Below, piece by piece: positions 17,590 through 64,000 of a DNA stretch of 64,000 nucleotides. The stretch comes from Candidatus Uhrbacteria bacterium (GTDB taxonomy: Bacteria > Patescibacteriota > Patescibacteriia > UBA9934 > GWF2-40-263): contig JACPHU010000002.1 of assembly GCA_016188495.1 (NCBI GenBank), forward strand, positions 111,466-175,465. The letters run 5' to 3'. The notes below the pieces were generated by a model. It saw nothing but the letters and a program-made list of their open reading frames with translations. It did not search any database and was not told where the DNA came from. The translations under genes and the position numbers were made by a program. How positions within the stretch are numbered: the first letter of the stretch is position 1; the number at the start of each line of letters is the position of its first letter.

Positions 17590-17622
17590 ATATTCCCTGA
17601 GCGAGGAGTCATCGACGAGTCG
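17590..17622 (+). repeat. 33-nt exact repeat, copy 1 (ATATTCCCTGAGCGAGGAGTCATCGACGAGTCG) just after the stop of the RmlD-like gene
   Basis: Identical 33-mer at 57987-58019. Both copies are preceded by CTCCT. A third, partial copy (19/20 nt) lies on the minus strand at about 6157-6180. Confidence 0.8.
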
Positions 17623-41704: not shown

Positions 41705-41852
41705 AAATGGCGTCTTTTCGTTTCATGGGCGCCCGCCGACCCCACTCTCCCTATGGGGAATAGGGTTCGCGGGGCTCGACCCGCCCGAACGAACGTTCGA
41801 CGGTCGGGCGGGCAGCCCATTCAACGAAAATCCATCCATTTTTAGAGATCCT
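41693..41852. repeat. Palindromic repeat element, copy D (divergent right end), between ftsB-like and PPIase genes
   Basis: Outer IR 'agggatctctaaaaatgg' / 'ccatttttagagatcc(t)t'. Core shares 'tttcatgggcgcccgcc' and '...gttcgacggtcgggcgggcagcccattcaa' with copies A and E. Confidence 0.7.
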
Positions 41853-41865
41853 TCATTAGTAAATA

Positions 41866-42854: not shown

Positions 42855-42963
42855 AAACCCATTTTAAATTTATAAAGGAAAAGTGCTACTGATGAGGCAC
42901 TTTTTCTCTTGATCTTCCTGATAGCTCCTGTTATTATTTTCGGGTCTTAGAATATATCTTCAT

Positions 42964-43105
42964 GCTGTGAATGATGAAACTCGATGAGATTGTCTTGAAT
43001 GGGCTGCCCGCCCGACCGTCGAACGACTGAACAGGATTGATCGTCGTTCAGTCGGGCGGGCGGGCGCCCGAAAACCTCAAGATCGCGAGTTTCATCATTC
43101 ACAGC
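42964..43105. repeat. Palindromic repeat element, copy E (inverted orientation), ending 4 nt before tRNA-Thr
   Basis: Outer IR 'gctgtgaatgatgaaactcg' / 'cgagtttcatcattcacagc'. Core is the reverse-complement arrangement of copies A/D ('atgagattgtcttgaatgggctg...gggcgggcgcccgaaaacctcaagatcg'). Confidence 0.75.
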
Positions 43106-50077: not shown

Positions 50078-50207
50078 GAGATCTCTCCAAAACTCGCGAC
50101 CTTCCCTTTCACGGGCGCCCGCCCTCCACACTCTCCCTATTGTGAATAGGGTTCGTATGGCTCAACAGCCCGTTCAAGGCAATCTCATCGAGTTTTGGAG
50201 AGATCTC
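50078..50207. repeat. Palindromic repeat element, copy A, immediately after the yqeY stop
   Basis: Outer IR 'gagatctctccaaaactcg' / 'cgagttttggagagatctc'. Core 'cgaccttccctttcacgggcgcccgcc...cccgttcaaggcaatctcat' contains the GGGCGCCC palindrome. Confidence 0.75.
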
Positions 50208-50288: not shown

Positions 50289-51293
50289 ATGGAAAAAAAG
50301 CTTGTTGCCAATAAGGCCGTCATCGTGAATCCTCAGGGGAAAATTTTGCTTGTTCGTGATGCGGGAAAATTTGATCATACACAGGCGTTGGGAAAATGGG
50401 ATTTTCCTGGTGGACGGATGGATGCGTTGGAATCTCCTCAAGAAGGATTGTTACGTGAACTGAAAGAAGAAGTAGGATTTGACCCTCATCAGGTTCACAT
50501 TCAACAGCCACTTCAGATTGGTTTTTGGGGGATGGGGGGCGATATTCAACAGAATCCAGTCGTGGGGATTTTTTATCTCGTCCGTTTGTTGGGGGAAGTC
50601 GAGATTGTGTTATCAGAGGAACATACGGAATTTTTTTGGTTTGATCCAAAACAGACGATTCCTAATGATGTGTGGCCTCGAGTATCTGAAGCGATAGAAG
50701 CGTATCGAAGACAAGAGGGGATTGCCGTGGCATCTGACGCACAGGTGAAAGGCTACCAAGGGTATGGTCTTATTCAGCTGTTTACAGGAAATGGAAAAGG
50801 GAAAACCACCGCGGCTTTAGGAGAAGTCTTACGTGCTGTTGGGGCTGGAAAAAAGGTAGGAATCGTCTTTTTTGATAAAGGGGGAGAGACTCATTATTTT
50901 GAACGTAAAATGATTGATCAGATAGAGGGGATTGATTACGTTGCCACGGGCCGCGATCGAATCGATCCGGTGACCGGACGATTTGATTTTTCTATTCAAG
51001 AAATTGATAAACAGGAAGGAAAACGAGGATTAGAAGAGATTCGTCGAATGTTTAAAGAAGGATGTGATTTGGTTGTGATGGACGAGATTAATTCAAGTGC
51101 AGATTTGGGCATTGTTTCTATCGAAGAGGTTTTGAGTGTTCTGGATGAAAAACCTAAACAAACAGAACTCATTATGACAGGGCGCAATGCTCCCGAAGCA
51201 TTCCTCACTCGTGCTCATCTTGTGACGGAAATGCGTTTGCGCAAGCATTATTTTTATTCAGGCGTAAAAGCACGCGAAGGGTTGGATTATTAG
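50289..51293 (+). CDS. Fusion protein: N-terminal Nudix hydrolase + C-terminal cob(I)alamin adenosyltransferase (CobO/BtuR-type)
   Basis: Nudix box 'GGRMDALESPQEGLLRELKEEVG'. P-loop 'FTGNGKGKTTAALG' typical of CobA/CobO. Confidence 0.75.
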   Translation: MEKKLVANKAVIVNPQGKILLVRDAGKFDHTQALGKWDFPGGRMDALESPQEGLLRELKEEVGFDPHQVHIQQPLQIGFWGMGGDIQQNPVVGIFYLVRLLGEVEIVLSEEHTEFFWFDPKQTIPNDVWPRVSEAIEAYRRQEGIAVASDAQVKGYQGYGLIQLFTGNGKGKTTAALGEVLRAVGAGKKVGIVFFDKGGETHYFERKMIDQIEGIDYVATGRDRIDPVTGRFDFSIQEIDKQEGKRGLEEIRRMFKEGCDLVVMDEINSSADLGIVSIEEVLSVLDEKPKQTELIMTGRNAPEAFLTRAHLVTEMRLRKHYFYSGVKAREGLDY

Positions 51294-53034: not shown

Positions 53035-54150
53035 TTAAGGATTCTTTCTGTTTTTTTTCATGAGCTGACGAAGCCTCATGAATTGTTCTATTTCACCGGT
53101 CATTCCTGCTATTTGCGGAAAATCAGTAGGAACTTTTTGCGCAAATTGAGGCTCAAGTTCGATTAACGATACCCCAGAACCTTCAAGATCCAGCATGGGA
53201 TAGGCACCATAAGCAATACCAAACGATCCCTGCTGTGTTTGAACTTTGTAGTAAGTGAACGCTCTGGCAATATCATCGACCGTTTCATCCTCCTCTTCAT
53301 TCAGATTCGCTGTTATCCCGTGTCGCAGATGTTCCGGGAGAGTCGTACGATTCACGGAAATATTTTTAAAACCGCTTGATTCCAATATTTCCTTTATACC
53401 CTCGATCGTTTCTCGCTCCTGCTCTTTGATTCGTTCTGCGTTAAGTTGTCTGAAACATTCCCCGTGATAGAAACGTTCAACATATATATTCAGACGATCT
53501 TCAGATTGAACGACATGAGTTGTCGTCACTTCACGCCAACCCCTCTGCTCTGCCGTAGAGAGGTATTGTTTCACATTGGTATCTACCCATTGAGGATTCT
53601 GTATGTCTATTGGATCGCTCAGACTTCGGAGTGCATCTGTTTGAGCAGATAGCTCTTCTTTTACCTGAGAAAGAGTTTTTCCTGCAAACAAAGAGAGTTC
53701 CAACTCCTCAAAACATCCCTCTGCATCAACGTCGTGACAAGTGAGCAGATCCCAACCTTTGCCACATCTAGCACAGATCATGTGCGGAGGCGGCAGCGGA
53801 AAGCTGGGTGTCATCCCAATGATGGATTCATAGACGGAGTAAGGACTTTTTTCCAGCCGCATCTCTACATGTTCATTGAGAAACCTATCGAATTCTTCAT
53901 CGGTCATAACGTTGGGCATTGCGTTACGATCTGAACCGGTAAAGATCTTTCGATGAAGTCGAGAACACTGACCAAACTCATCAGAACGATATCGTCCAAG
54001 AAGAATGAACGGTTCTAAGGTGCCATATTCTTCACCCTCCGTTCCGTCAGATTTATAACCTCCTTTTTCGTTTCGCAAATGCATGAGAGCGTAGAAGGTT
54101 TCATAAGACGAAAGCTGTGAAGTGATACCTTCTTTCGTGTTGTGATTCAC
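53035..54150 (-). CDS. Hypothetical 371-aa protein with Cys/His cluster
   Basis: Motif 'HMICARCGKGWDLLTCHD'; no family recognised. Confidence 0.5.
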   Translation of the reverse strand: MNHNTKEGITSQLSSYETFYALMHLRNEKGGYKSDGTEGEEYGTLEPFILLGRYRSDEFGQCSRLHRKIFTGSDRNAMPNVMTDEEFDRFLNEHVEMRLEKSPYSVYESIIGMTPSFPLPPPHMICARCGKGWDLLTCHDVDAEGCFEELELSLFAGKTLSQVKEELSAQTDALRSLSDPIDIQNPQWVDTNVKQYLSTAEQRGWREVTTTHVVQSEDRLNIYVERFYHGECFRQLNAERIKEQERETIEGIKEILESSGFKNISVNRTTLPEHLRHGITANLNEEEDETVDDIARAFTYYKVQTQQGSFGIAYGAYPMLDLEGSGVSLIELEPQFAQKVPTDFPQIAGMTGEIEQFMRLRQLMKKNRKNP

Positions 54151-54266: not shown

Positions 54267-54614
54267 TCATTTTGTAAAACTATTTATCAGGCCGGATAAC
54301 AATCTCGAAACTTCTTCTAGATTTGTTTTCAAACCAGCTAGTTCTTTATTTTCGATTATTTTTTCATCACAAAGTAATTCCAATAAAGAGGCGCATTCAA
54401 AAACTGATCCACGAGAAATGACGTAAAAATTCTTACGGTCTTGTTTAGATAATTTACCTGTACCTTCCGCGATATTTATGACCATACTGACAGAGGCTCG
54501 ATAAAGTTGGTCTCGCAAAAAAGCATTGGTCTTTTTATCAATCAATATTTTCTGAATTTTTGCGTTTACTTCTTTGGCTTTTTGGTAAGCTACAAGTTTT
54601 TCAAAGTCGAACAT
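54267..54614 (-). CDS. Four-helix-bundle protein (TIGR02436-like, the family often found in rRNA intervening sequences)
   Basis: 'FEKLVAYQKAKEV...INIAEGTGK...SRGSVFECASLLEL' resembles that family. Confidence 0.6.
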   Translation of the reverse strand: MFDFEKLVAYQKAKEVNAKIQKILIDKKTNAFLRDQLYRASVSMVINIAEGTGKLSKQDRKNFYVISRGSVFECASLLELLCDEKIIENKELAGLKTNLEEVSRLLSGLINSFTK

Positions 54615-54684
54615 AATTCTGGAAAATACTAGATTCTAGAATCTAGAGTCTAGTAACTAGATTCTAGTCCCGCCAAAGGCGGGC

Positions 54685-54761
54685 TGGTCGGGCTAGTGGG
54701 ACTTGAACCCACGGCCTCCAGACCCCCAGCCTGGCGCTCTAGCCTACTGAGCTATAGCCCG
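54685..54761 (-). tRNA. tRNA-Pro (anticodon GGG), CCA encoded
   Basis: Manual fold: acceptor CGGGCTA/TAGCCCG, D-stem GCTC/GAGC, anticodon stem CCAGG/TCTGG with loop CTGGGGG (G37), T-stem GTGGG/CCCAC. Confidence 0.75.
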
Positions 54762-54765
54762 ATAT

Positions 54766-54892
54766 GAAGTTCTTCTAAAACTTGCGATCTTGCCTTTCAC
54801 GGGGCCCCATTGGCTTGTCGCCGTATGGCGAATACGGCTCTGTCGCCAATTTCCCCGTTCAAGGCAATCTCATCAAGTTTTAGAAGAACTTC
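54766..54892. repeat. Palindromic repeat element, copy B, starting 5 nt from the 5' end of tRNA-Pro
   Basis: Outer IR 'gaagttcttctaaaacttg' / 'caagttttagaagaacttc'. Core 'cgatcttgcctttcacggggcccc...ccccgttcaaggcaatctcat' contains the GGGGCCCC palindrome. Confidence 0.75.
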
Positions 54893-54978
54893 TTTCGTTG
54901 CGATCATACGATGTTTTTATCAATTCATCAACAATTATTTTCTTCTTTTTTTCAAATTTCTGTTAATATAAGCCTCAT

Positions 54979-57900
54979 ATGAGACGTGAGGGTGAAGCTT
55001 TACATGATCGTGAATCAGCTAAAAAACAAGAAATTTCTTTTTCTGATATTCAGGATGATTTAACTTCTGTATTGGTCAGTCAACGCGAGTTTGTTTCTAG
55101 ACAGGAGTCAGATCGTCTTCCCGAACTTATTTTAGATGAATCTGCGTTTGATCAGTTATCCCAATCTCAACGTACCGCGGTTGAACAAAATGTACGATTA
55201 CTTTCATTGTTATCTGGACATCGGGGAAGCATGCTTCGACGTCAGTTAAAGTCTCTTCAAAATCCATCCGTGGCTAAACTCGCTCAATTATTGGAGTGGT
55301 CCAATAGCGTTGTAAAAAGTGGAGTTTTTTCTTTTGATGAAACAATAACCACACCGCCTTCTGATTTTTTACAAAAGAAAAAGGATCCACGTGAGCTGTA
55401 TGAATATGTACTAGCCGCTTCCGCGATGGGTGAGGAAGAGTCAGTTAATCCAGAAGCGCTTTCTGAAACCATCCGTCGAAGTTTGCATTTGGCGCCTGGA
55501 AAAGGTGATGCGGATATCAATAAGGTGTTGTTTGGCGATCGGTCTAAAGAGATAAAAGTTGTTTTAGACACCTTAGGATTTATTCCTCGCCAGCTTTATA
55601 AATATCCCTCTTTCAGAATACTTGAGCCTGCACAGGTTATTGCTGCTGAGCGCCAACTTCGAGAAATAGAGCAGTCTCATCCTTCATTGCGTCATCAAGC
55701 CCGCGAGGAACGTACCCAGGTCACTCAAGCATTATTTACCAGTGGCATTGCAAAGAAATTACGAACAGGCGGAACAGATACCCGATACGTGACCTTGGAC
55801 TCAAACGGTGTCCGCATTCATTTTGACGGACGTGTTTCTGGAAAAGGGAAATCCCTTTTAGACCGTCCATTTGTGGCGCATATTCCCTACGGTCTTTTAT
55901 CGGATGAATGTGTTTCAGAATTAGAAAAGCATTGGCTTCAAACAGAAGCTGAAGGATTAGAATTACGGCTTCGTCGAGCTCAAGAGAATTATGACATCCC
56001 AGAGAGCCGCGCCAAAAAAGAGCATCAAGTTTCTGCTTTTGCTGACACCTTGGGTTTAACCAAAGAAACTCCGGAATTGACGTATCAAGCCTTTAAAAAA
56101 GAACTTGTTGAATTTCCTGATCGTTTTGCAAAACGCGTTTTAGACAGCGGTGAGATCATTCCAGATCAGCTGCTTGAACGATTGTTTGCAGATATGCAGG
56201 AGAAGGGGATCTTTGTTTCCATGCGGTTTGCGGAGGCAGTCACGGCTTTCATTTCCACAGAAGCTCTTTCGAATAAACGATTGTTTCTTCAGCACGGTAT
56301 TAAAGATAACCAAAAACAAACGTATCAAGCTCGCGCCCGAGTCATGAGCGACCCTCGTTATTACAATGCCCTAAAAATTGTCCGTTCGGTTCTTGTACAG
56401 CACCCTTACTCCGATCCTGAAAAACAGTTTTTGGTTTTTCGCGGACAATATAAAAAATCCAACGAAGGCCGTCAGCATACCTTTTTAGAAGTTGTTCATG
56501 AGGGTCAGATGGCAAAGGTGTTAGTCGATGAACAAAAGGAGTTTAAATCAGATCAGTTAGAACGCACACCTGTGTTTTCTCGAGAAGTATATGAAGAGTT
56601 GGAAGAAAGTTTAGTGGCTTTTGATTATTTTCTTGGACGGATTGATCAGATGCGACGGCTTGTCCGTTATAAAAACAAACACTGGGAAACAAAATTTCGT
56701 GAAGACATGAAAGAGGTGGAGATTTTTGTGCTCACCAATGTCAGTCATCGATATAAAGACCTTCGTGTTCTTATTGATCGATTGCAAACCCAAGAGATGC
56801 CTGAAGAAACTCTTTTGTCTTTTTTCTACGTTCTTCAACAGACACAAGAAGAGTATCGAACGTTTCTCTACCAAGGCGCTACGCCGGAACTCATCGGTTT
56901 CCGAGATTTTTTTCGTCCAAGTGTTCGAGTGCAGGAAATTGAGTATGGCCAAGAATTTTTATCTTTAGCAACACGGATGTGTCCTGAGTGGGGGGTTGAT
57001 AAAGAATTGAGTACAGAATCTCAACCTATTCGTGTGATTGCCTTGAATCATCTTATTCAACATCCATCAGAAACAATCCCTGTCGATGTTGAAGAGGCTG
57101 TGTTAGATAAATTACGTGTAAATCGTAATCGTCCTTTGATCAACGTGGTAGGTGGTTGTAAGTTTGTCGCTGGAATGGAGAATCCTGAAGACCATCCGCT
57201 TAATAAAATGAGTTTAGCTGTGCTAAACGTTGCTCACGAAGTAAAAGCCAATGTCGCTGTTCCTGGGACACAGTCTGGAATCGGAGTGTACTTTGGACAA
57301 CAAAATGTGAGATACCGACGAACCACAGATCATTTTCCGTTTAAAGAACGTGCACATCTCTTTTCTATTTCCACCGGTGGGAATACCGTTTATCCAGAGA
57401 ATCCTTGGATGGAAAAGACAGATCCATCCGAACGATATGCTGTGGCGCCAGTGGACACAGTTGTCACACCTATTACGGCTTTATGGGAAGCTAAAGGGAA
57501 GGAGCGTTTAAGAGGTTACGATCTTCATATTGTTTATATGGAGTCATTGTTTGCTCGTATTAGTAAAGAGCAGCCTCGTGTCCTGGTAGCGGGCAACGGT
57601 GGTATTTTTTCTATTTTGGAAATTAATGAGTCCATCAAGCATGGGTTTGATATTCTTCTGATCGAAGATTCTGGTCGTTTTGCAGAAGCAGCTTCAGCGG
57701 TTATGAGAGAAATCGACCACTTACCAGATCCAGAGGATCCAGGATTTGATGAACATGTGCGTTTATTGTTGCAGGCTACACTTCCAACGGATGTTATGAA
57801 AGAATTTTTTAAAAAGGATTTTGGAGAGACAACACCTCCTCAAGGAGATCTGAAAGAAAATTACGAGGTGTTTCGAGATCATTTTCGACGATTCGTTGTC

Positions 57901-57987
57901 TTAGCAAAGCAATTTCCTAACAAAGTTCATGTGACTCATCTGGATTCACTTGAAAGAGATATACGGACGTTTGTCACACCTCCTTAA
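54979..57987 (+). CDS. Large hypothetical protein (1002 aa) with C-terminal LOG/SLOG-like Rossmannoid domain
   Basis: C-terminal 'VVGGCKFVAG' and 'LVAGNGGIFSILEINESIKHG' resemble the two LOG-family glycine-rich motifs. N-terminal about 650 aa unassigned. Confidence 0.55.
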   Translation: MRREGEALHDRESAKKQEISFSDIQDDLTSVLVSQREFVSRQESDRLPELILDESAFDQLSQSQRTAVEQNVRLLSLLSGHRGSMLRRQLKSLQNPSVAKLAQLLEWSNSVVKSGVFSFDETITTPPSDFLQKKKDPRELYEYVLAASAMGEEESVNPEALSETIRRSLHLAPGKGDADINKVLFGDRSKEIKVVLDTLGFIPRQLYKYPSFRILEPAQVIAAERQLREIEQSHPSLRHQAREERTQVTQALFTSGIAKKLRTGGTDTRYVTLDSNGVRIHFDGRVSGKGKSLLDRPFVAHIPYGLLSDECVSELEKHWLQTEAEGLELRLRRAQENYDIPESRAKKEHQVSAFADTLGLTKETPELTYQAFKKELVEFPDRFAKRVLDSGEIIPDQLLERLFADMQEKGIFVSMRFAEAVTAFISTEALSNKRLFLQHGIKDNQKQTYQARARVMSDPRYYNALKIVRSVLVQHPYSDPEKQFLVFRGQYKKSNEGRQHTFLEVVHEGQMAKVLVDEQKEFKSDQLERTPVFSREVYEELEESLVAFDYFLGRIDQMRRLVRYKNKHWETKFREDMKEVEIFVLTNVSHRYKDLRVLIDRLQTQEMPEETLLSFFYVLQQTQEEYRTFLYQGATPELIGFRDFFRPSVRVQEIEYGQEFLSLATRMCPEWGVDKELSTESQPIRVIALNHLIQHPSETIPVDVEEAVLDKLRVNRNRPLINVVGGCKFVAGMENPEDHPLNKMSLAVLNVAHEVKANVAVPGTQSGIGVYFGQQNVRYRRTTDHFPFKERAHLFSISTGGNTVYPENPWMEKTDPSERYAVAPVDTVVTPITALWEAKGKERLRGYDLHIVYMESLFARISKEQPRVLVAGNGGIFSILEINESIKHGFDILLIEDSGRFAEAASAVMREIDHLPDPEDPGFDEHVRLLLQATLPTDVMKEFFKKDFGETTPPQGDLKENYEVFRDHFRRFVVLAKQFPNKVHVTHLDSLERDIRTFVTPP

Positions 57988-58019
57988 TATTCCCTGAGCG
58001 AGGAGTCATCGACGAGTCG
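57987..58019 (+). repeat. 33-nt exact repeat, copy 2, overlapping the stop codon of the 1002-aa gene
   Basis: Identical to 17590-17622; followed by a strong hairpin terminator. Confidence 0.8.
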
Positions 58020-58039
58020 AAGGGGCATTGAAATTAAAT

Positions 58040-58080
58040 AACCACCAGATCCCGAAGGAGTCTGGTGGTTTTCGTTTTTT
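58040..58080 (+). terminator. Strong rho-independent terminator after the 1002-aa gene
   Basis: CCACCAGA-tcccgaaggagt-CTGGTGG + TTTTCGTTTTTT. Confidence 0.75.
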
Positions 58081-58227
58081 GCCTCCCTATACCCCGGGTG
58101 GCGGACCACGTTACTCGCAAGCAACATGGTGAGGGGTGAGTTGATGAGCCGCAGCTCTTCAACTCTCGAAGTCCTTAACCGCAGTTTTGGACCTCGGCCC
58201 TCTCTCCACCCGTAGGTGAGGAGAAGG

Positions 58228-58845
58228 CTAGCTATTGATCAGATCGATTGACTTCTGGACGGCACTGGTCATGCTGTCGCAGATATACACGTTGGGGTAA
58301 TCCTTGACCAGATCGCTCAGATACGACCGCATCCGGTTGGCATCCTTGAGATCTCGACCCAGAACCTCCTGGTTCTCGATCACGGTTCCCATCGGAATAT
58401 TCTCGATGGAGAGAACGACCGTTCGCCCGTCGGCTCCATACTTGAGAGCTTCCATGATCGAAACGCCGGCGCGAGTCTGTCCGTCGATGACGAACAGGAG
58501 CACCTTTGCCTCATCCTTGGCCGCGGCTTCGATTGCCACCAGTTCCGGTGACCAGTCGTCGACCTGGGGGTTGTAGAAGCTCACTCCAGCTTCTTCCAGC
58601 GTCGGAATGGCATAATCGAACCGCCAGGTGGTCGGGTTGCACGAGCCACCGAGAAACACAGAAGCATTCGAACCAGTAGCATTCTTCATCTCGTTTCCAT
58701 CCTTAGCAGGACTTTTTGTGAATAAACCTACCGTTGTCTGTCCCGCAATATGACGCGGGTAGGCACTGCTGCGACTCATCGTTTTTGGAGCACATGCTCT
58801 TTGACGATGACGGATGAGAATATCAGATTTTATCATTTTTGTCAA
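58228..58845 (-). CDS. Nucleoside 2-deoxyribosyltransferase-like protein (GC-rich island)
   Basis: 'SVFLGGSCNPTTWR' and overall size/pattern resemble the Nuc_deoxyribosyltransferase-like family. Visibly GC-rich. Confidence 0.55.
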   Translation of the reverse strand: MTKMIKSDILIRHRQRACAPKTMSRSSAYPRHIAGQTTVGLFTKSPAKDGNEMKNATGSNASVFLGGSCNPTTWRFDYAIPTLEEAGVSFYNPQVDDWSPELVAIEAAAKDEAKVLLFVIDGQTRAGVSIMEALKYGADGRTVVLSIENIPMGTVIENQEVLGRDLKDANRMRSYLSDLVKDYPNVYICDSMTSAVQKSIDLINS

Positions 58846-59088
58846 TAGTTTTAGACAGATGAAATATTTAGAACAAGCATATTTTGCTTTATTTAGTGAA
58901 AATTTTGACAGTTTTTTTAAAAGAAGTTATTCTTATAGTGGTTTATGACACAAACAAATGTTTCCATCTTCGTTCGCCGTTGCCGTTGTCTTTAAAGGAC
59001 GATACGCGGGTTTGTGATTTTAAATTCCTGTAACGTCGTCCTGTTTGGGCGATTTTTTGTTTGTCCAACCAGCAAAGGAGAAGAGATC

Positions 59089-59598
59089 ATGGCTCTCACA
59101 TGCCTGTTTCCTGCACCTATTTCTAAAGGTGTATGGCACGTTCTTTCAACCGCTCTGGGTTACGAACCAAAGATTGATTCTGAACGGAATACCCCAGAGA
59201 ATCTACAGGACCTTTATCAACGTTCATTAGCAGCTCTGCTTATGGACGGGAATGTACCCGTTGGGTTTATTGCCGCTTGGCCTGTGGCAGAGGGATTTGT
59301 CGAGATCGGTTCCGTGTGGATTCATCCCGACTATCGTCATCAAGGGTTGAGTCATCAGATTTACGATGCGATACTTTTGCTTAAAGGTGTTGGCCAACAG
59401 ATCGCTTTTGGTGTCACAACCAATCCTATTTCTGTCCATGTTGGGCACCGAGTAGGGCTTGAAGTGATGGAGAATTGGGACACGCCTGTTCCTCGAAATC
59501 TGACCTGTGGACCCTGCGAATTAGTTCGTTCAGAAAATCAACCAACCTGCGAAAAACGAAATAAAACCTGCTGGTTACGCATCAGGAAGAATACGTAA
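59089..59598 (+). CDS. GNAT-family N-acetyltransferase
   Basis: Motif A-like 'IHPDYRHQGLSHQIYDA'; SD 'AAAGGAGAAG' upstream. Confidence 0.6.
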   Translation: MALTCLFPAPISKGVWHVLSTALGYEPKIDSERNTPENLQDLYQRSLAALLMDGNVPVGFIAAWPVAEGFVEIGSVWIHPDYRHQGLSHQIYDAILLLKGVGQQIAFGVTTNPISVHVGHRVGLEVMENWDTPVPRNLTCGPCELVRSENQPTCEKRNKTCWLRIRKNT

Positions 59599-59625
59599 AA
59601 GAGGGTACGCATCCCTCTTTTTTGT
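59597..59625 (+). terminator. Terminator after the GNAT gene, at the boundary to the GC-rich block
   Basis: AGAGGG-tacgcat-CCCTCT + TTTTTG. Confidence 0.7.
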
Positions 59626-59920
59626 TTCCTACTCTTGACAAAATCACTCTTTCTGACTAAGGTCCTGCTCTTCAGATAGGGCCCGTCTGATTCAAAACGT
59701 TTTCTTTAGGAGAAAACTGTTTCATGCAAAGGCCCTTCTGCAAGAAAGGGTTCTTTTTATTTTGCGTATACCATACACGCGTTTGGATCATTTCTGTGTT
59801 TCAGGGGGCTCCTGTGCACAGAAGTGATCCTCAGACGCGTCTATGGTGTACCTCAATCTTCGTGTGGTCGTTCCTGTCAGATCACGTGTAAGAATATTGT
59901 TCGACAGGGAGGGTACTTCA

Positions 59921-61783
59921 ATGAACCGATGGATTCGTTATGCGGTGTTGGCCCTGAGCGTGATGCTCTGGACCGCTTGTTCCAAGAATGAGCAGCAGAG
60001 CGCGGCTCCTGCCGCCAATGAAACAGCTGCGCAGAATCAGTCCGCTGCACCCAATGTTCCTGCTTCGACCGTGGGTATGCCCGGCGGGGCGAAGATGTCC
60101 GGAGAACCGGTTCAGGTTCCGTATATCACCTGGGGTGGGGATTATCCCTTCTTCTGGTGTACGGGCGGGCTGCAGACACGTGAAAACACGATTTGCGCCC
60201 AGTACAAGACCAACGTGAAGTTGGTTCCCGGCGACAATTTCCAGACGCAGCTGGCCGATTACAAGGCTGGCAAAAGTCCGTTCCTGCGGGGCACCTTCGA
60301 AATGGTGGGTGTTCACACTGCCGAGCTGTGTGGAAATGACGCCAATGCCTGTCCCGAGTTCGTCTTCCAGATGACTTGGTCGGCGGGCGACCATCTCGTG
60401 ACCCGCGAGGGAATCACAGACCTCGCTCAGCTCAAGGGGAAGACCGTCGCTTTGCAGAAGAGCGGACCTCACATGGGATTCCTCTTTGCGATCCTTCAGG
60501 ATGCCGGCCTCAAGTGGTCGGATGTGAAGATCGTCTGGGTGGATAATCTCTCGGGTAACGGATCTCCGGCTGAGGCTTTGCAGAAGAACGCGTCCGTGGA
60601 TGGGGTGTTCGTAATCACTCCGGATATGCTCGCTTTGACCGGTGCCGAAAGCACGGTCAAGGGAGCGCATGTCCTGGTGTCGACCAAGGAACGCCGTCGT
60701 ACGATCGCGGATGCCTACTTCGTGCGCCATGATTGGGCACAGGCTCATCAGGAAGAGCTCCGAAACTTCGTCGCTGCCTATCTTTACAGTATGGAAGCGG
60801 TGAAAGCTCTGCAGGAAGCCTATGACGGCTCCGGTTCCCCCGAGTATAAGGCTCTGATGAGTTTTACGCTTCAGGCCTTGCCGACTATTCCGACGTTCGA
60901 AGATGCCGATGGTCTGTATCGCGATGCAACGTTCGTCGGACATTCCGGCGCCGTGGCGTTTCTGGACGCGCAGAACAAGGAAGGGATCAACACCTTCGTG
61001 AGTCGCTCAAACGCGATTGCTCGAGAACTGAATCTCGCCACGAACGATTTTCAGATCAACGTGGCTCCTGTGGATCTGTCCCACGCCGTGTTCAACTCTC
61101 TCAAGACCAAAGGATTGGCGAGGAAGACAGCGTTCAATGCCGAAGCCACCCGTGCGCAGCTGGAGCAGATGACCAACCAGGGAACCCTGGGAAAGAACAA
61201 GTCTCTGTCCTTCAGTGCGGGGTATGCTCCCAACCAGACGACGTTCGATGCCAGCCAATACAAGGTTGAGTTCGACCGAATTCTCGAATTGATGGGAAGC
61301 TATTCGACGGCTCCGGTGGCGATTCGTTGTCATGCGGATACGCTCATTGCTGTAGGTTCGATGCTTCAGACAGGAATGGAAGCGGGAGTGATTTCCCGTC
61401 AGGGAACCTCTGGTAACTATTCCTACTTTATTGATGGAGTTCCTCTGGACATCACCAATGCCTCAAAGATCGGCGGATTGATCCATGATCCGAGGTTCAA
61501 TCAGACAAAGAACGCTGATGCACAGAGTCCAACGGAGATTGCAGGTGCGGCCAAGACGCTCACCGAAGAGCGATGCCGAAATGCTCGGGACTCATTCCTG
61601 GCCTATGCCAAGTCAAAGGGATCTAAGATCTCTGACGCTCAGGTCGTCGCTCAGGGGGTGGGAATTGGTGAACCTGTGGTTGTTCTCCCACGTTCGGAAA
61701 AGGAAACGGCTGCCAATCGGCGCGTCGAGTTTTCCGTCGTACGTGTCGAGGTAGAAGCCACTAACCCTAGTTTCGATTACTGA
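59921..61783 (+). CDS. Lipoprotein fusion: periplasmic substrate-binding (NMT1/SsuA-like) domain + C-terminal OmpA-like peptidoglycan-binding domain (GC-rich block)
   Basis: Signal + 'LWTAC' lipobox-like. 'LKGKTVALQKSGPHMGFLFAILQDAGLKWSDVKIVWV' is SBP-like. C-terminal 'AANRRVEFSVV' is the OmpA_C signature. SD 'GGGAGGG' upstream. Confidence 0.65.
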   Translation: MNRWIRYAVLALSVMLWTACSKNEQQSAAPAANETAAQNQSAAPNVPASTVGMPGGAKMSGEPVQVPYITWGGDYPFFWCTGGLQTRENTICAQYKTNVKLVPGDNFQTQLADYKAGKSPFLRGTFEMVGVHTAELCGNDANACPEFVFQMTWSAGDHLVTREGITDLAQLKGKTVALQKSGPHMGFLFAILQDAGLKWSDVKIVWVDNLSGNGSPAEALQKNASVDGVFVITPDMLALTGAESTVKGAHVLVSTKERRRTIADAYFVRHDWAQAHQEELRNFVAAYLYSMEAVKALQEAYDGSGSPEYKALMSFTLQALPTIPTFEDADGLYRDATFVGHSGAVAFLDAQNKEGINTFVSRSNAIARELNLATNDFQINVAPVDLSHAVFNSLKTKGLARKTAFNAEATRAQLEQMTNQGTLGKNKSLSFSAGYAPNQTTFDASQYKVEFDRILELMGSYSTAPVAIRCHADTLIAVGSMLQTGMEAGVISRQGTSGNYSYFIDGVPLDITNASKIGGLIHDPRFNQTKNADAQSPTEIAGAAKTLTEERCRNARDSFLAYAKSKGSKISDAQVVAQGVGIGEPVVVLPRSEKETAANRRVEFSVVRVEVEATNPSFDY

Positions 61784-61796
61784 GAAGGAGGATCAC

Positions 61797-62777
61797 ATGA
61801 ACGGATATAAATTTCTCCTTCGACTGTGTGTCGTGTTGGGGATTGTCAGTTTCTTTTTGATCCCGATGATGGTTGGTGCGGCCGATATTCATAACACTAC
61901 CGTGATTGTGCTGGACGGTTCCGGTTCCATGGATGAATCCATGAGGGATCAAGCGACAGGCCAGTCCGTCAAGAAGATGGATGCGGCCAAAAAGGCCCTC
62001 AAGGATGTTATTGCCAAGGTGCCGTCGGATACCCATGTCGGAATTCTGGTCTTCACAAGCGGTCGCATGGGATGGCTCACAGATCCACCTCTTGGACAGG
62101 TTCAGGAGAACATCTTTTCGGCTCTGGATCAGGTCAGTCCTGGAGGAGGAACTCCGCTGGGACTGGGTATCAAGAACGGAACGGACATGCTCCTACATGA
62201 TCGTCAGACACAGAATAATGTCGGGCGATATCAGTTGATTGTGGTGACTGATGGTGAAAATACACAAGGTCCAGGGGTGGATGAATATGCTCCGTTGGTT
62301 GCTCCTCGCGGCATCCGGATGGATGTGATCGGTGTGGCCATGCCCGGTGGTGCCACTCATCAGCTCGCACAGTGGGCCGATTCTTATCAGCCGGCCGATG
62401 ATGCTGTAAGTCTCCAGACCGCTCTTAAGAAAGCGATCGTGGTGGAGGCGGGCGGAAAGGATGCTCCGGCAGACTTCTCTGCTACCGCAGGGCTTCCGAT
62501 GGAGGTAGCGAAAGTCTGGCTTGCCGCGCTCTCACAGACTCCCCCCAATTATCCGTTGGGAGAGCAGCCTCCTGTGGAGACCAAACCGAATCCTGCCTCT
62601 GCCGCAGTTCCTGTTGCTGAGGCACCTCCCGCTCCTCCTGAATTGGTTCAGTCCAGCTGTAGCACAGCAGGAACCGGAACCATCGGGAGCGGTCTGACAA
62701 CGCTCATGCTCGTGATCATCATTCTGACGTCTCTGGTTTCCAGACGTCGACTGATTCCTGTTCGTATCCGGCGTTAA
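61797..62777 (+). CDS. Secreted von Willebrand factor A domain protein with C-terminal Cys-containing TM + Arg-rich tail
   Basis: MIDAS 'DGSGSM' and 'VVTDGEN'. Tail is 'SSCSTAGTGTIGSGLTTLMLVIIILTSLVSRRRLIPVRIRR'. SD 'GAAGGAGGA'. Confidence 0.75.
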   Translation: MNGYKFLLRLCVVLGIVSFFLIPMMVGAADIHNTTVIVLDGSGSMDESMRDQATGQSVKKMDAAKKALKDVIAKVPSDTHVGILVFTSGRMGWLTDPPLGQVQENIFSALDQVSPGGGTPLGLGIKNGTDMLLHDRQTQNNVGRYQLIVVTDGENTQGPGVDEYAPLVAPRGIRMDVIGVAMPGGATHQLAQWADSYQPADDAVSLQTALKKAIVVEAGGKDAPADFSATAGLPMEVAKVWLAALSQTPPNYPLGEQPPVETKPNPASAAVPVAEAPPAPPELVQSSCSTAGTGTIGSGLTTLMLVIIILTSLVSRRRLIPVRIRR

Positions 62778-62934
62778 CGCCACGATGTCCTTCTCGTTTC
62801 ACTTCATGTGAGTCTACGAAGGACTTTTTTCCTAAGGTCATCTCAGTAACATGAGTTGATCTGAGGCTGAAAAGAATACATTTGTTCTATAAGGTTTAAG
62901 TTCTCTTCAACTGAATAGAAAGAAGGAGAATTCG

Positions 62935-64000
62935 ATGGCTGACAATGAAACGCGGGCAATGCGTAATTTGGGAGCCGGTATTCTGGCTCTTATCTTGATT
63001 GTGGTCCTTGGAGTGAGTTTCAAGTTTTTGATCTATCCCAAGTTGCAGTCTCGTCTAGTAGAATCTACCAGTGCAACAACAAGTTACACTTCGCAGATAA
63101 CCGTCTGTGGCGATTCGTTCGCCGGCTATGCCGTCGTGCGTTCGCCTGCCATGAAGCGTGAGCTCGCCTCCAAAGGGATTCGTCTCAATTGGAAAGATGA
63201 TGTAGCGGACTACGGCGCGCGCGCAAAGGCTGTGCGTGCCGGAGAGTGCGATTTCGCGGTCAATACCATCGACGCGGATCTGGTGACCGGACAGGATTTG
63301 GGAGAGTTTCCCGGTTCCATTATTTTCATCATCGATGAGAGTCATGGCGCCGATGGCGTGGTCGCCTACAAGACGGCCGTACCCAATGTCCAGGCACTCA
63401 ATCAAGCCGGAACCAAGATCGTCGTGACAGCAAATTCACCCAGTGAAACTCTGGCGCGGCAGATGATCTCGGGCATGCTTCCCATGCTCGCCAACGATCA
63501 ACATTGGCTGGAAGCGGCTGATGGTGCAGAGGCTGTCTATAAACAGCTCATCGGTACCAAGCCCAATGAGCGCAAAGCATTCGTTTTGTGGGAACCCTGG
63601 CTTTCCAAAGCTCTCGAAATCGACGGCGTTCAGAAGATCTACGATTCATCCGCCACTACAGCGACAATTGTTGATGTGATGACGGTGAATCGAAGTTATC
63701 TTTCCGAACGTGCCGATTTGGTGAACTTTTTCACTCAGGCCTATTTCAGGAATCTCTGGTCCTATACCAGTCAGCCTTCTGGACTCAGGGATCTGGTGAT
63801 CGAGGACGCCCAGGAGCAGGGAAGCAAGCTCATCAACGATCAGGCGCTTGCTATCGTGACAGGAATTCGATGGAAAAATACTTTGGAGAATTATGCCCAT
63901 ATGGGTCTGGTCCCCAGGTTTGAAGCCAAAGGCATTCCCAACATGGAAGACATGGTTTCGGGAATTTCTCGATTCTTGGTTCGCACAGGCAAACTTGCGA
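62935..64000 (+). CDS. Membrane-anchored NMT1/SsuA-like ABC-transporter substrate-binding protein (3'-truncated by window edge)
   Basis: ORF runs off the window end (not in the ORF track). SD 'AAGGAGAA'. N-terminal TM, then an SBP-like domain similar to the N-terminal half of the 59921 protein. Confidence 0.6.
   Translation, partial: MADNETRAMRNLGAGILALILIVVLGVSFKFLIYPKLQSRLVESTSATTSYTSQITVCGDSFAGYAVVRSPAMKRELASKGIRLNWKDDVADYGARAKAVRAGECDFAVNTIDADLVTGQDLGEFPGSIIFIIDESHGADGVVAYKTAVPNVQALNQAGTKIVVTANSPSETLARQMISGMLPMLANDQHWLEAADGAEAVYKQLIGTKPNERKAFVLWEPWLSKALEIDGVQKIYDSSATTATIVDVMTVNRSYLSERADLVNFFTQAYFRNLWSYTSQPSGLRDLVIEDAQEQGSKLINDQALAIVTGIRWKNTLENYAHMGLVPRFEAKGIPNMEDMVSGISRFLVRTGKLA

Follow-up and report, generated by a model that had tools for sequence, protein, structure and literature searches.

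A TRPM-type SLOG protein, an exchangeable small gene and a conserved hairpin RNA element in a candidate three-part chromosomal module

A 64,000-nucleotide stretch of contig JACPHU010000002.1 (GenBank assembly GCA_016188495.1, Candidatus Uhrbacteria bacterium; positions 111,466 to 175,465 of the forward strand, here called the window and numbered from its first letter) contains a gene for a soluble protein of 1002 aa, a small GC-rich gene convergent with it and a folded, RNA-like element starting at the small gene's stop codon. Below we identify the domains, show that the module is conserved and that the element is strand-specific and supported by covariation, and report an enrichment of neighbouring genes connected with NAD and ADP-ribose. 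We tentatively propose, as a reading to which we give slightly less than an even chance, that the locus is a three-part chromosomal module in which the large protein, by means of a SLOG domain of the kind found in TRPM channels, senses or processes a nucleotide derived from NAD or ADP-ribose, accompanied by an exchangeable gene and an RNA element.

The locus had been singled out in an original prediction, made from the sequence, as a candidate nucleotide-centric module of defence or signalling in a mobile setting. Both open reading frames (ORFs), the glycine-rich motifs of the large protein, the tRNA-Pro and the four-helix-bundle gene that it listed are present as claimed (ORF list, Pfam and NCBIfam). 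According to two papers that cite the work, Burroughs et al. (2015) connected SLOG folds, and folds resembling nucleoside 2-deoxyribosyltransferases (NDT-like), with nucleotide-centric systems in general (PMC6459960 and PMC13143021). Loci of relatives are denoted by our own L numbers.

Results

The large protein ends in a TRPM-type SLOG domain

The large gene (positions 54979..57987, forward strand; GC content 0.42, GC content at third codon positions (GC3) 0.32) encodes MBI2473132.1, annotated by NCBI as 'hypothetical protein [Candidatus Uhrbacteria bacterium]' and located on a contig of 190 kb. Its C-terminus had been called LOG/SLOG-like on account of two glycine-rich motifs, which begin at aa 723 and aa 869 of 1002, and the assignment now narrows to the TRPM/LSDAT family: an LSDAT-type SLOG (Rossmannoid) domain was recognised by Pfam, Foldseek and profile comparison with the PDB at aa ~700-1002 (57076..57984, forward strand). 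In Pfam, aa 718-909 match PF18171 LSDAT_prok ('SLOG in TRPM, prokaryote') with an E value of 6.3e-8 and 32.6 bits against a cutoff of 25.4, and the same family is also found in the homologs, nine of which are close. An AlphaFold2 model of the large protein, built from a 9-sequence alignment (mean predicted local distance difference test score, pLDDT, 79; predicted TM-score, pTM, 0.60), gave 60 Foldseek matches in the PDB at E <= 1e-3, nearly all of them to the MHR1/2 N-terminal region of TRPM2, TRPM4, TRPM5, TRPM7 and TRPM8, the best being human TRPM2 with ADP-ribose (8e6q_A, E 1.3e-6, about 345 aligned columns). The model of aa 150-700 has no TRPM match, and the similarity therefore resides in the C-terminus. 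Consistent with this, a profile of the C-terminal part (A7; 14 sequences, ~310 aa) reached TRPM2 (7aov_A, E 1e-8), zebrafish TRPM2 (1.8e-7), TRPM8 (1e-5) and TRPM7 (1e-3) among the PDB sequences, where the full-length profile found nothing.

The motifs of the domain are PLINVVGG (725-726), NVAVPGTQSGIG (758-769), Y853-x6-R860, NGGIFSILE (873-881) and DSGR900FAE. In the profile alignment, PLINVVGG pairs with LLISVTGG of TRPM2, ANVAVPGTQSG with AWILTGGTHAG, NGGIFSILE with D307-GGPGTLNT315, and DSGR900FAE with GSGR334LAD, which places R900 opposite R334 of zebrafish TRPM2 (drTRPM2). The N-terminal ADP-ribose pocket of the zebrafish channel includes R334, R278 and Y271 (PMC7555694), and the spacing Y853-x6-R860 is identical to that of Y271-x6-R278. 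The glutamate that closes the NGGxxSxxE motif (E881; Thr, T315, in TRPM2) is kept in 61 of 67 family sequences, and R860, located 13 aa before this motif, in 54 of the 67. For LOG enzymes, catalysis has been proposed to depend on the Glu of PGGxGTxxE together with an Arg located upstream (E122 and R99 in CgLOG; PMC4979012). Compared with the LOG motif, NGGIFSILE keeps the Glu and the upstream Arg but not the Pro or the second Gly, and the protein has no Pfam LOG match. Judged by profiles and model, the C-terminal domain is a genuine LSDAT/SLOG domain, and its residues indicate that it most likely binds an ADP-ribose-like, NAD-derived nucleotide; since the catalytic Arg and Glu of LOG enzymes are retained in it, it may also cleave the nucleotide that it binds.

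In agreement with the original prediction of an N-terminus without recognisable domains, the N-terminal ~700 aa have no family match in Pfam, NCBIfam, PADLOC or, with the full-length profile, the PDB sequences, and the predicted structure of aa 150-700 matches no known fold in Foldseek. Family conservation nevertheless delimits a module at aa ~165-405 (55471..56193, forward strand), in which D274 and H301 are invariant (59/59) and P203, R245, G277, P303 and E328 nearly so. The same module is present in five proteins that lack the SLOG domain, for which neither known domains nor a PADLOC match were found. We presume that the N-terminal ~700 aa are a family-specific output or partner-binding part. 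The protein has no transmembrane segment (the maximum Kyte-Doolittle value over 19 residues is 1.15), hence none of the six of a TRP channel, and no channel domain was matched in Pfam.

The family is rare and patchily distributed. An exhaustive profile search gave 119 representatives at 50% identity for its ~1000-aa members, of which ~55 are full length (920-1270 aa), and a second homolog search with a 72-sequence alignment returned no further members. Two members (probably P0061 and P0066; the identifiers were not matched to sequences) carry W in place of an invariant G, reading NGW for NGG and KWTWR for DSGR. The position of these W residues suggests that the two are genes of genomes with UGA=Gly (code 25, Gracilibacteria/SR1) translated with UGA=Trp. 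Separately, the assignment of the source metagenome-assembled genome to Uhrbacteria (candidate phyla radiation) looks doubtful, because the window encodes OmpA-type and other diderm-type proteins and an 85%-identical relative of the large protein is labelled Lentisphaerae bacterium GWF2_44_16.

A hairpin RNA element is the invariant partner of the large gene

What invariably accompanies the large gene in the loci examined is a hairpin element and not the NDT-like gene. In the window, RNAfold and a covariance model delineate a strand-specific, RNA-like element at 58141..58233 on the reverse strand, starting from the UAG stop of the small gene and folding into P1 (58197-58228; 13 bp with a UACG tetraloop), P2 (58167-58196) and a third hairpin (58141-58162). 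In the consensus, (A)GC-UAG-CUyUC..yACC-YNNG-GGUr..GArAGC forms P1, P2 comes directly after it, and a third hairpin often follows. The small genes end at the first nucleotides of the element on their own strand, with UAG as the stop codon in 13 of 14, and the first 90 nt of the element fold at -30 to -49 kcal/mol.

The structure is supported by covariation, which we evaluated for a 28-pair structure of our own in 15 sequences, with 500 shuffles and with slid controls. In the 15-sequence alignment 82% of the cells are paired, as against 66% after shuffling (none of the 500 shuffles reaches 82%) and 41-59% in the slid controls, and compensatory changes occur in 23 of the 28 pairs; within P1 they occur in 7 of 10. 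Realignment fitted to the covariance model raises these values to 85% paired cells (66% shuffled, slid controls 41-58%) and 25 of 28 compensatory pairs, figures that lean towards the structure because of that fitting. The covariance model finds one copy per family locus with downstream sequence, at 43-90 bits, and two in L025; the copy in L002 and the second copy in L025 were both outside the training set. In the window the match at 58150-58233 on the reverse strand (49 bits, E 3e-13) is the only one in 64 kb, and no copy was detected by the model at loci of unpaired NDT homologs. Many G-U pairs, together with the fact that opposite-strand matches are partial and reach only 19 bits, indicate that the strand of the small gene is the structured one. 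Neither the window element nor five element-carrying loci (four of them among the best-scoring) gave an Rfam 15 match at E <= 1.

Other accounts of the element were set aside. Read-through or recoding of the UAG was rejected, as the in-frame stretch beyond it shows no conservation and runs for 1 to 26 codons, and the single copy in 64 kb led us to reject a generic genomic repetitive extragenic palindromic (REP) element or terminator. Viral contigs yielded 39 pattern matches, about the chance expectation, none of which the covariance model confirmed. The element opens with the self-complementary AGCUAGCU (window 58228-58233) and the P2 loop is mostly CU(A/U)GCU; by their sequences, these two segments could form base pairs between themselves or bring about dimerisation. 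The window-type variant has CUGCGG or CUUCGG tetraloop hairpins in P2 and P3 instead.

These properties bear on the most prosaic interpretation of the locus, namely that the NDT-like gene serves nucleoside salvage and has nothing to do with the large protein, with the hairpins as ordinary terminators of convergent genes. The convergence of the genes, the many other contexts in which the NDT family occurs, the separate canonical terminator behind the large gene and the stable, terminator-like tetraloop hairpins would all fit it. Set against this, the element keeps its sequence and structure across lineages in which protein identity has fallen to ~30-35% and locus GC ranges over 36-65%; it has no U-tract directly behind the hairpins; the window contains just this one copy in its 64 kb, and unpaired NDT loci contain none; and the NDT pairing recurs in seven lineages with differing flanking genes. 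We consider this interpretation very improbable.

An exchangeable gene precedes the element

In almost every locus the position directly downstream of the large gene is taken by a small convergent gene, the family of which varies. In the window the occupant of this exchangeable slot is an NDT-like gene (58228..58689, reverse strand; 153 aa), and the claim that the downstream gene is GC-rich and NDT-like is borne out by a Pfam match to PF15891 Nuc_deoxyri_tr2 (E 3.9e-18, 66.2 bits against a cutoff of 30), a GC content of 0.55 and a GC3 of 0.69. The gene predicted there is thus real, whereas its predicted length of 205 aa is not: the start is most likely the ATG at 58689 rather than the TTG at 58845, because the 153-aa form is 100% identical to the NCBI protein and homologs begin there. 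Conserved residues include FLGGSC, W22, R23, E54, K58, D69, T72, R73 and E80; the conservation of E80, D69 and others suggests an active enzyme, whose predicted substrates are nucleosides or nucleotides and whose predicted activity is that of an N-glycosidase or a base-exchange enzyme. We found no close relative that has been solved or characterised. All 120 listed of the 186 NDT homologs found, eukaryotic catalogues included, carry PF15891.

Co-occurrence of the two genes in other genomes, which the original prediction had anticipated, was assessed by ORF clustering and tblastn over 19 loci. An NDT-like gene adjoins the large gene in 7 of ~15 lineages, with identities of 29-86%, in two subtypes and two arrangements. 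These lineages, with their identities, are the window together with its 85% group, L001 (52%, in which the public gene caller overlooked the NDT gene), L021 (36%; the organism of L033), L027 (43%), L025 (33%), L037 (35%) and L028 (29%); in L028, the exception to convergence, the NDT-like gene lies on the same strand, 27 nt upstream of the large gene. Pairwise identities of the NDT-like and large proteins correlate (r = 0.83). In the reverse direction, two of five NDT homologs sampled from long contigs are convergent to a member of the large family, a high rate for a family so rare. The pairing is real and beyond chance. It is not obligatory, because unrelated genes fill the slot in other lineages.

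Among the unpaired NDT homologs, those of L029/L030 (4878-6450) and L036 lie in phage-like regions of many small ORFs, and one lies directly after an ADP-ribosylglycohydrolase gene, near phosphoribosyl pyrophosphate (PRPP) synthetase and CYTH genes.

Besides NDT-like proteins of type A or B, which are the commonest, the slot holds X1 (L008, L020), X2 (L007, L023, L026), a 261-aa protein (L016-18), a 160-aa protein (L024) or a 187-aa protein (L004), in all at least five unrelated families. The alternative proteins have no match in Pfam, NCBIfam or PADLOC. Comparison with hhalign gave no indication that X1, X2, the 261-aa and 148-aa proteins of L016, the 160-aa protein of L024 or a 182-aa protein upstream in L007 are hidden NDT proteins; the last has a weak PF15891 match, below the cutoff.

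The small genes also differ from the large ones in composition, with GC3 values (small versus large gene) of 0.69 versus 0.32 in the window, 0.70 versus 0.28 in L021 (locus GC 0.36), 0.88 versus 0.30 in L027, 0.86 versus 0.30 in L024, 0.72 versus 0.24 in L020 and 0.93 versus 0.38 in L007. The excess is smaller or absent in L025 (0.39 versus 0.47), L028 (0.76 versus 0.65), L023 and L026. Along the window, GC content steps from ~0.42 to ~0.54 where the large gene ends and does not fall again across the NMT1-like, VWA and OmpA genes (58000-64000). The same step is seen in relatives at 52% identity (the downstream regions of L001, L002 and L007), and in other lineages the GC-rich stretch is confined to the small gene and the RNA element. 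A chimeric assembly at the step is ruled out, as the junction between the large gene and the NDT gene is present in independent JGI, ENA and NCBI assemblies. The Logan assemblies L034 and L035, from the same organism, break ~240 nt past the NDT gene, in the spacer that holds the hairpins and a 33-nt repeat.

A slot of this kind raises the question of gene exchange, with the hairpin element acting as a strand-specific recombination site similar to attC and the large protein as a neighbour or a recombination factor. Several features would agree with this: unrelated ORFs all stop at the same nucleotide of the element (again with UAG in 13 of 14), the element occurs in tandem in L025 and as orphan copies, its structure is strand-specific like that of folded attC bottom strands, and the GC3 of the small genes is unlike that of the host genomes. 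In addition, the L027 large protein is nearest that of L021 (61%), while its NDT protein is nearest that of L025 (55% versus 41%). The machinery of such an exchange is, however, missing from the neighbours, whose Pfam records and scans contain no integrase or transposase except one Y1_Tnp in L002; inspection of the element alignment, made without a formal attC model, revealed no attC core sites (RYYYAAC/GTTRRRY); the arrays comprise only one or two units; and fold and profile comparisons of the N-terminal region show no resemblance to any recombinase. We regard cassette exchange as quite improbable.

The locus is chromosomal and recurrently lies among genes of NAD and ADP-ribose chemistry

The mobile context that had been predicted does not apply to the large gene, which lies in conserved synteny at a chromosomal site and not in an island of mobile DNA. 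In the closest clade (52-85% identity), a fusion of NUDIX with the CobA/CobO/BtuR corrinoid adenosyltransferase is found upstream in L001, L002, L007 and L016 as well as in the window, where this NUDIX-CobO (BtuR) gene occupies 50289..51293 on the forward strand; a trypsin-like gene follows it in L001, L002, L007 and L016, and downstream come genes for an NMT1-like lipoprotein, VWA and OmpA. In L001 the NUDIX-CobO, trypsin-like, GNAT and large genes all point the same way and are separated by short gaps. In the window and other relatives, opposite-strand genes are inserted, which in the window are MgtE, ASCH, a 371-aa unknown, the four-helix-bundle gene and tRNA-Pro.

In more distant relatives the theme recurs with other genes. 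In L004 and L008 (36% identity) the large gene is immediately preceded, on its own strand, by NadE, two IU_nuc_hydro genes and a NUDIX gene. NUDIX and His_Phos_1 genes lie upstream in L026, a His_Phos_1 gene is nearby in L021, L024 and L027, and a regulator of the NrtR type is present in L037 (NUDIX plus NrtR_WHD, E 4e-26). This recurrence of NUDIX, NrtR, NadE, IU-nucleoside-hydrolase and His_Phos_1 neighbours agrees with the nucleotide-centric theme of the original prediction, and it supports NAD, ADP-ribose and nucleoside chemistry as the common denominator.

The defence module that the same prediction had entertained fared less well. In such a system the SLOG domain would sense a second messenger of infection, with the N-terminal region or the swapped small gene as effector. 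Thoeris ThsA is a SIR2-SLOG effector activated by 3'cADPR, and the swapping of effector genes between lineages occurs in other immune systems. The variable partner slot with its at least five unrelated families, the rarity and patchiness of the family, the deviant composition of the small genes, which suggests horizontal exchange, and the NDT homologs in phage-like contexts beside ADP-ribosylglycohydrolase are all in keeping with this picture, as is the reported role of SLOG as the sensor in ThsA (10.64898/2026.03.01.708072). Yet no PADLOC model matches the large protein, the NDT protein, the window neighbours, the module-only proteins or the alternative partners (a single 12-bit match at chance level excepted), and neither the large nor the NDT protein has a PHROG match. 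No signal-generating enzyme (TIR, cyclase) is near in any examined locus, and neither TIR nor SIR2 families were found in the scanned window genes or in the Pfam records and scans of the neighbours at other loci. No recognisable effector domain is present, viral contigs contain no relatives of the large protein, and the synteny is with housekeeping-type genes. A sensor-effector system of the defence type is plausible and without any positive marker, and we hold it to be unlikely.

Other features of the window

The large gene is directly followed by an exact 33-nt repeat, ATATTCCCTGAGCGAGGAGTCATCGACGAGTCG (57987..58019), with a second copy at 17590-17622. It had been placed at the end of the locus, where it does not lie; its position is between the two genes, right after the stop codon of the large gene. 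Both copies directly follow unrelated ORFs, and their similarity stops at 33 nt. Behind it, a CCACCAGA...TCTGGTGG hairpin followed by a T-run (58042..58081, forward strand) is the probable intrinsic terminator of the large gene, as judged by inspection of the sequence; a terminator consensus scan did not list it.

Upstream of the large gene, the segment 54267..54892 is probably filler outside the module, and other opposite-strand genes replace it in L002, L007 and L016. It comprises the four-helix-bundle gene (54267-54614, reverse strand; 115 aa, PF05635/TIGR02436 by Pfam and NCBIfam), tRNA-Pro(GGG) (54685-54761, reverse strand) and the 'repeat element' of the original prediction. The latter exists, in the form of a dispersed, ~125-nt palindromic intergenic repeat (54766-54892) with at least four copies in the window; further copies lie at ~50085-50205, ~41760-41865 and, as reverse complement, 42955-43060. 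Perfect 19-nt inverted repeats bound the copy at 54766-54892, which resembles miniature inverted-repeat transposable elements (MITE) or REP sequences and matches no family in Rfam. For the filler genes upstream of the large gene, an origin from phage or prophage is unsupported, the only PHROGs matches being to the ASCH/DUF3850 gene and the GNAT gene. The 371-aa protein of the variable upstream segment (53035-54150, reverse strand) has no match in Pfam, NCBIfam, PADLOC or PHROGs.

On the other side of the locus, a GNAT acetyltransferase gene recognised by Pfam (59014..59598, forward strand) has a homolog of 46% identity that immediately precedes the large gene in L001. Behind the window gene, a perfect 9-bp hairpin (59597-59621) scores as a terminator on both strands, and an ~85-nt palindromic stretch upstream of the NMT1-like gene (59766-59851) gives weak, sub-threshold matches to microRNA families on both strands.

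Discussion

The three-part module that we favour would work as follows. The soluble ~1000-aa protein would sense or process an NAD/ADP-ribose-derived nucleotide with its TRPM-type SLOG domain. The small gene on the opposite strand, exchangeable between lineages, would supply a partner enzyme that acts in the same chemistry. The RNA of two to three hairpins, which starts from the stop codon of the small gene, would be made as the 3' end of the small-gene transcript and would control termination, stability or expression of the partner mRNA; it might also be a target of the large protein.

Several points weigh against this proposal. It leaves the strong GC3 excess of the small genes without explanation, and the equivalence of Y853 and R860 with Y271 and R278 of TRPM2 is drawn solely from their spacing. 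In two cases, the copy of L002 and the second one of L025, the element stands as an orphan whose UAG terminates no ORF, and it therefore does not strictly require a gene; the hairpins could also simply be terminators. The large and small genes are convergent, except in L028, and thus form no operon, and NDT homologs far outnumber the members of the SLOG family and are also met in other settings. Finally, because NUDIX genes are common, the enrichment among the neighbours is only moderate, at ~4 independent contexts of ~15 where a rough estimate expects <1.

Overall, we place the NAD/ADP-ribose module first, followed by the defence-type sensor-effector system, the cassette-exchange site and coincidental neighbours. 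The pattern of the third is attractive, but no recombinase was found, and the last is unlikely because the element is conserved and unique. A bolder extension of the first would treat the SLOG protein, the hairpin RNA and the GC-rich gene as one new functional unit, a nucleotide-sensing protein that acts on a dedicated 3' RNA, with the large protein either controlling the expression of the interchangeable genes or directing their exchange. We consider this possible, and doubtful as it stands.

Comparison with known systems shows where the locus departs from them. PF18171 LSDAT_prok (Burroughs et al. 2015, as far as PMC13143021 cites it) shares the Rossmannoid SLOG fold, the glycine-rich loops and the GSGR motif, but it defines a domain and does not include the ~700-aa N-terminal region, the RNA element or the exchangeable gene. 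The MHR1/2 region of TRPM2 is homologous in fold and motifs, down to the alignment of R900 with drTRPM2 R334, and the NUDIX genes that recur near the large gene recall the NUDIX-type NUDT9H domain of TRPM2 (PMC13143021). The large protein nevertheless has no channel or transmembrane part, carries its SLOG domain at the C-terminus instead of the N-terminus, and keeps E881, which TRPM2 has lost. LOG phosphoribohydrolases belong to the same superfamily, and NGGxxSxxE with an Arg 13 aa upstream parallels CgLOG R99/E122 (PMC4979012), whereas the large protein has no Pfam LOG match, replaces the Pro and the second Gly, and is five times larger. Like Thoeris ThsA, it joins a SLOG domain to another region in a setting tied to NAD-derived nucleotides; unlike ThsA, it has no SIR2 or transmembrane domain, no ThsB/TIR nearby and no PADLOC match.

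The two other components can be compared in the same way. The 153-aa protein keeps the acidic E80 after a D-x-x-T-R segment, as in the PF15891 superfamily, but the paired copies are GC3-rich and followed by the 3' RNA element, which unpaired homologs lack. The slot resembles integron attC cassettes in that unrelated small ORFs each stand directly before a conserved, strand-specific folded element, with tandem and orphan copies. It differs in that no IntI-type integrase occurs among the scanned neighbours and no attC core sites were seen on inspection, and in that the element consists of two separate hairpins, in place of the one long imperfect hairpin of attC, with one or two units per locus.

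The domain families are thus known, while the ~1000-aa architecture, the RNA element and the GC-rich exchangeable slot appear undescribed; in the literature that we searched we found no characterised prokaryotic LSDAT protein and no account of this architecture, element or slot. The LSDAT domain is the ADP-ribose sensor of animal TRPM2 channels. Because the bacterial family keeps a pocket Arg of TRPM2 together with the LOG-type Glu and lies among NAD/ADP-ribose genes, it would offer a tractable bacterial model for how an LSDAT domain binds or processes nucleotides, and for the origin of the SLOG-plus-NUDIX pairing of TRPM2. An RNA motif at the end of interchangeable, compositionally deviant genes could, in turn, reveal a new mode of gene regulation or gene exchange. 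If the three parts do act as one unit, a bacterial relative of the TRPM2 ADP-ribose sensor would be coupled to an RNA element absent from Rfam.

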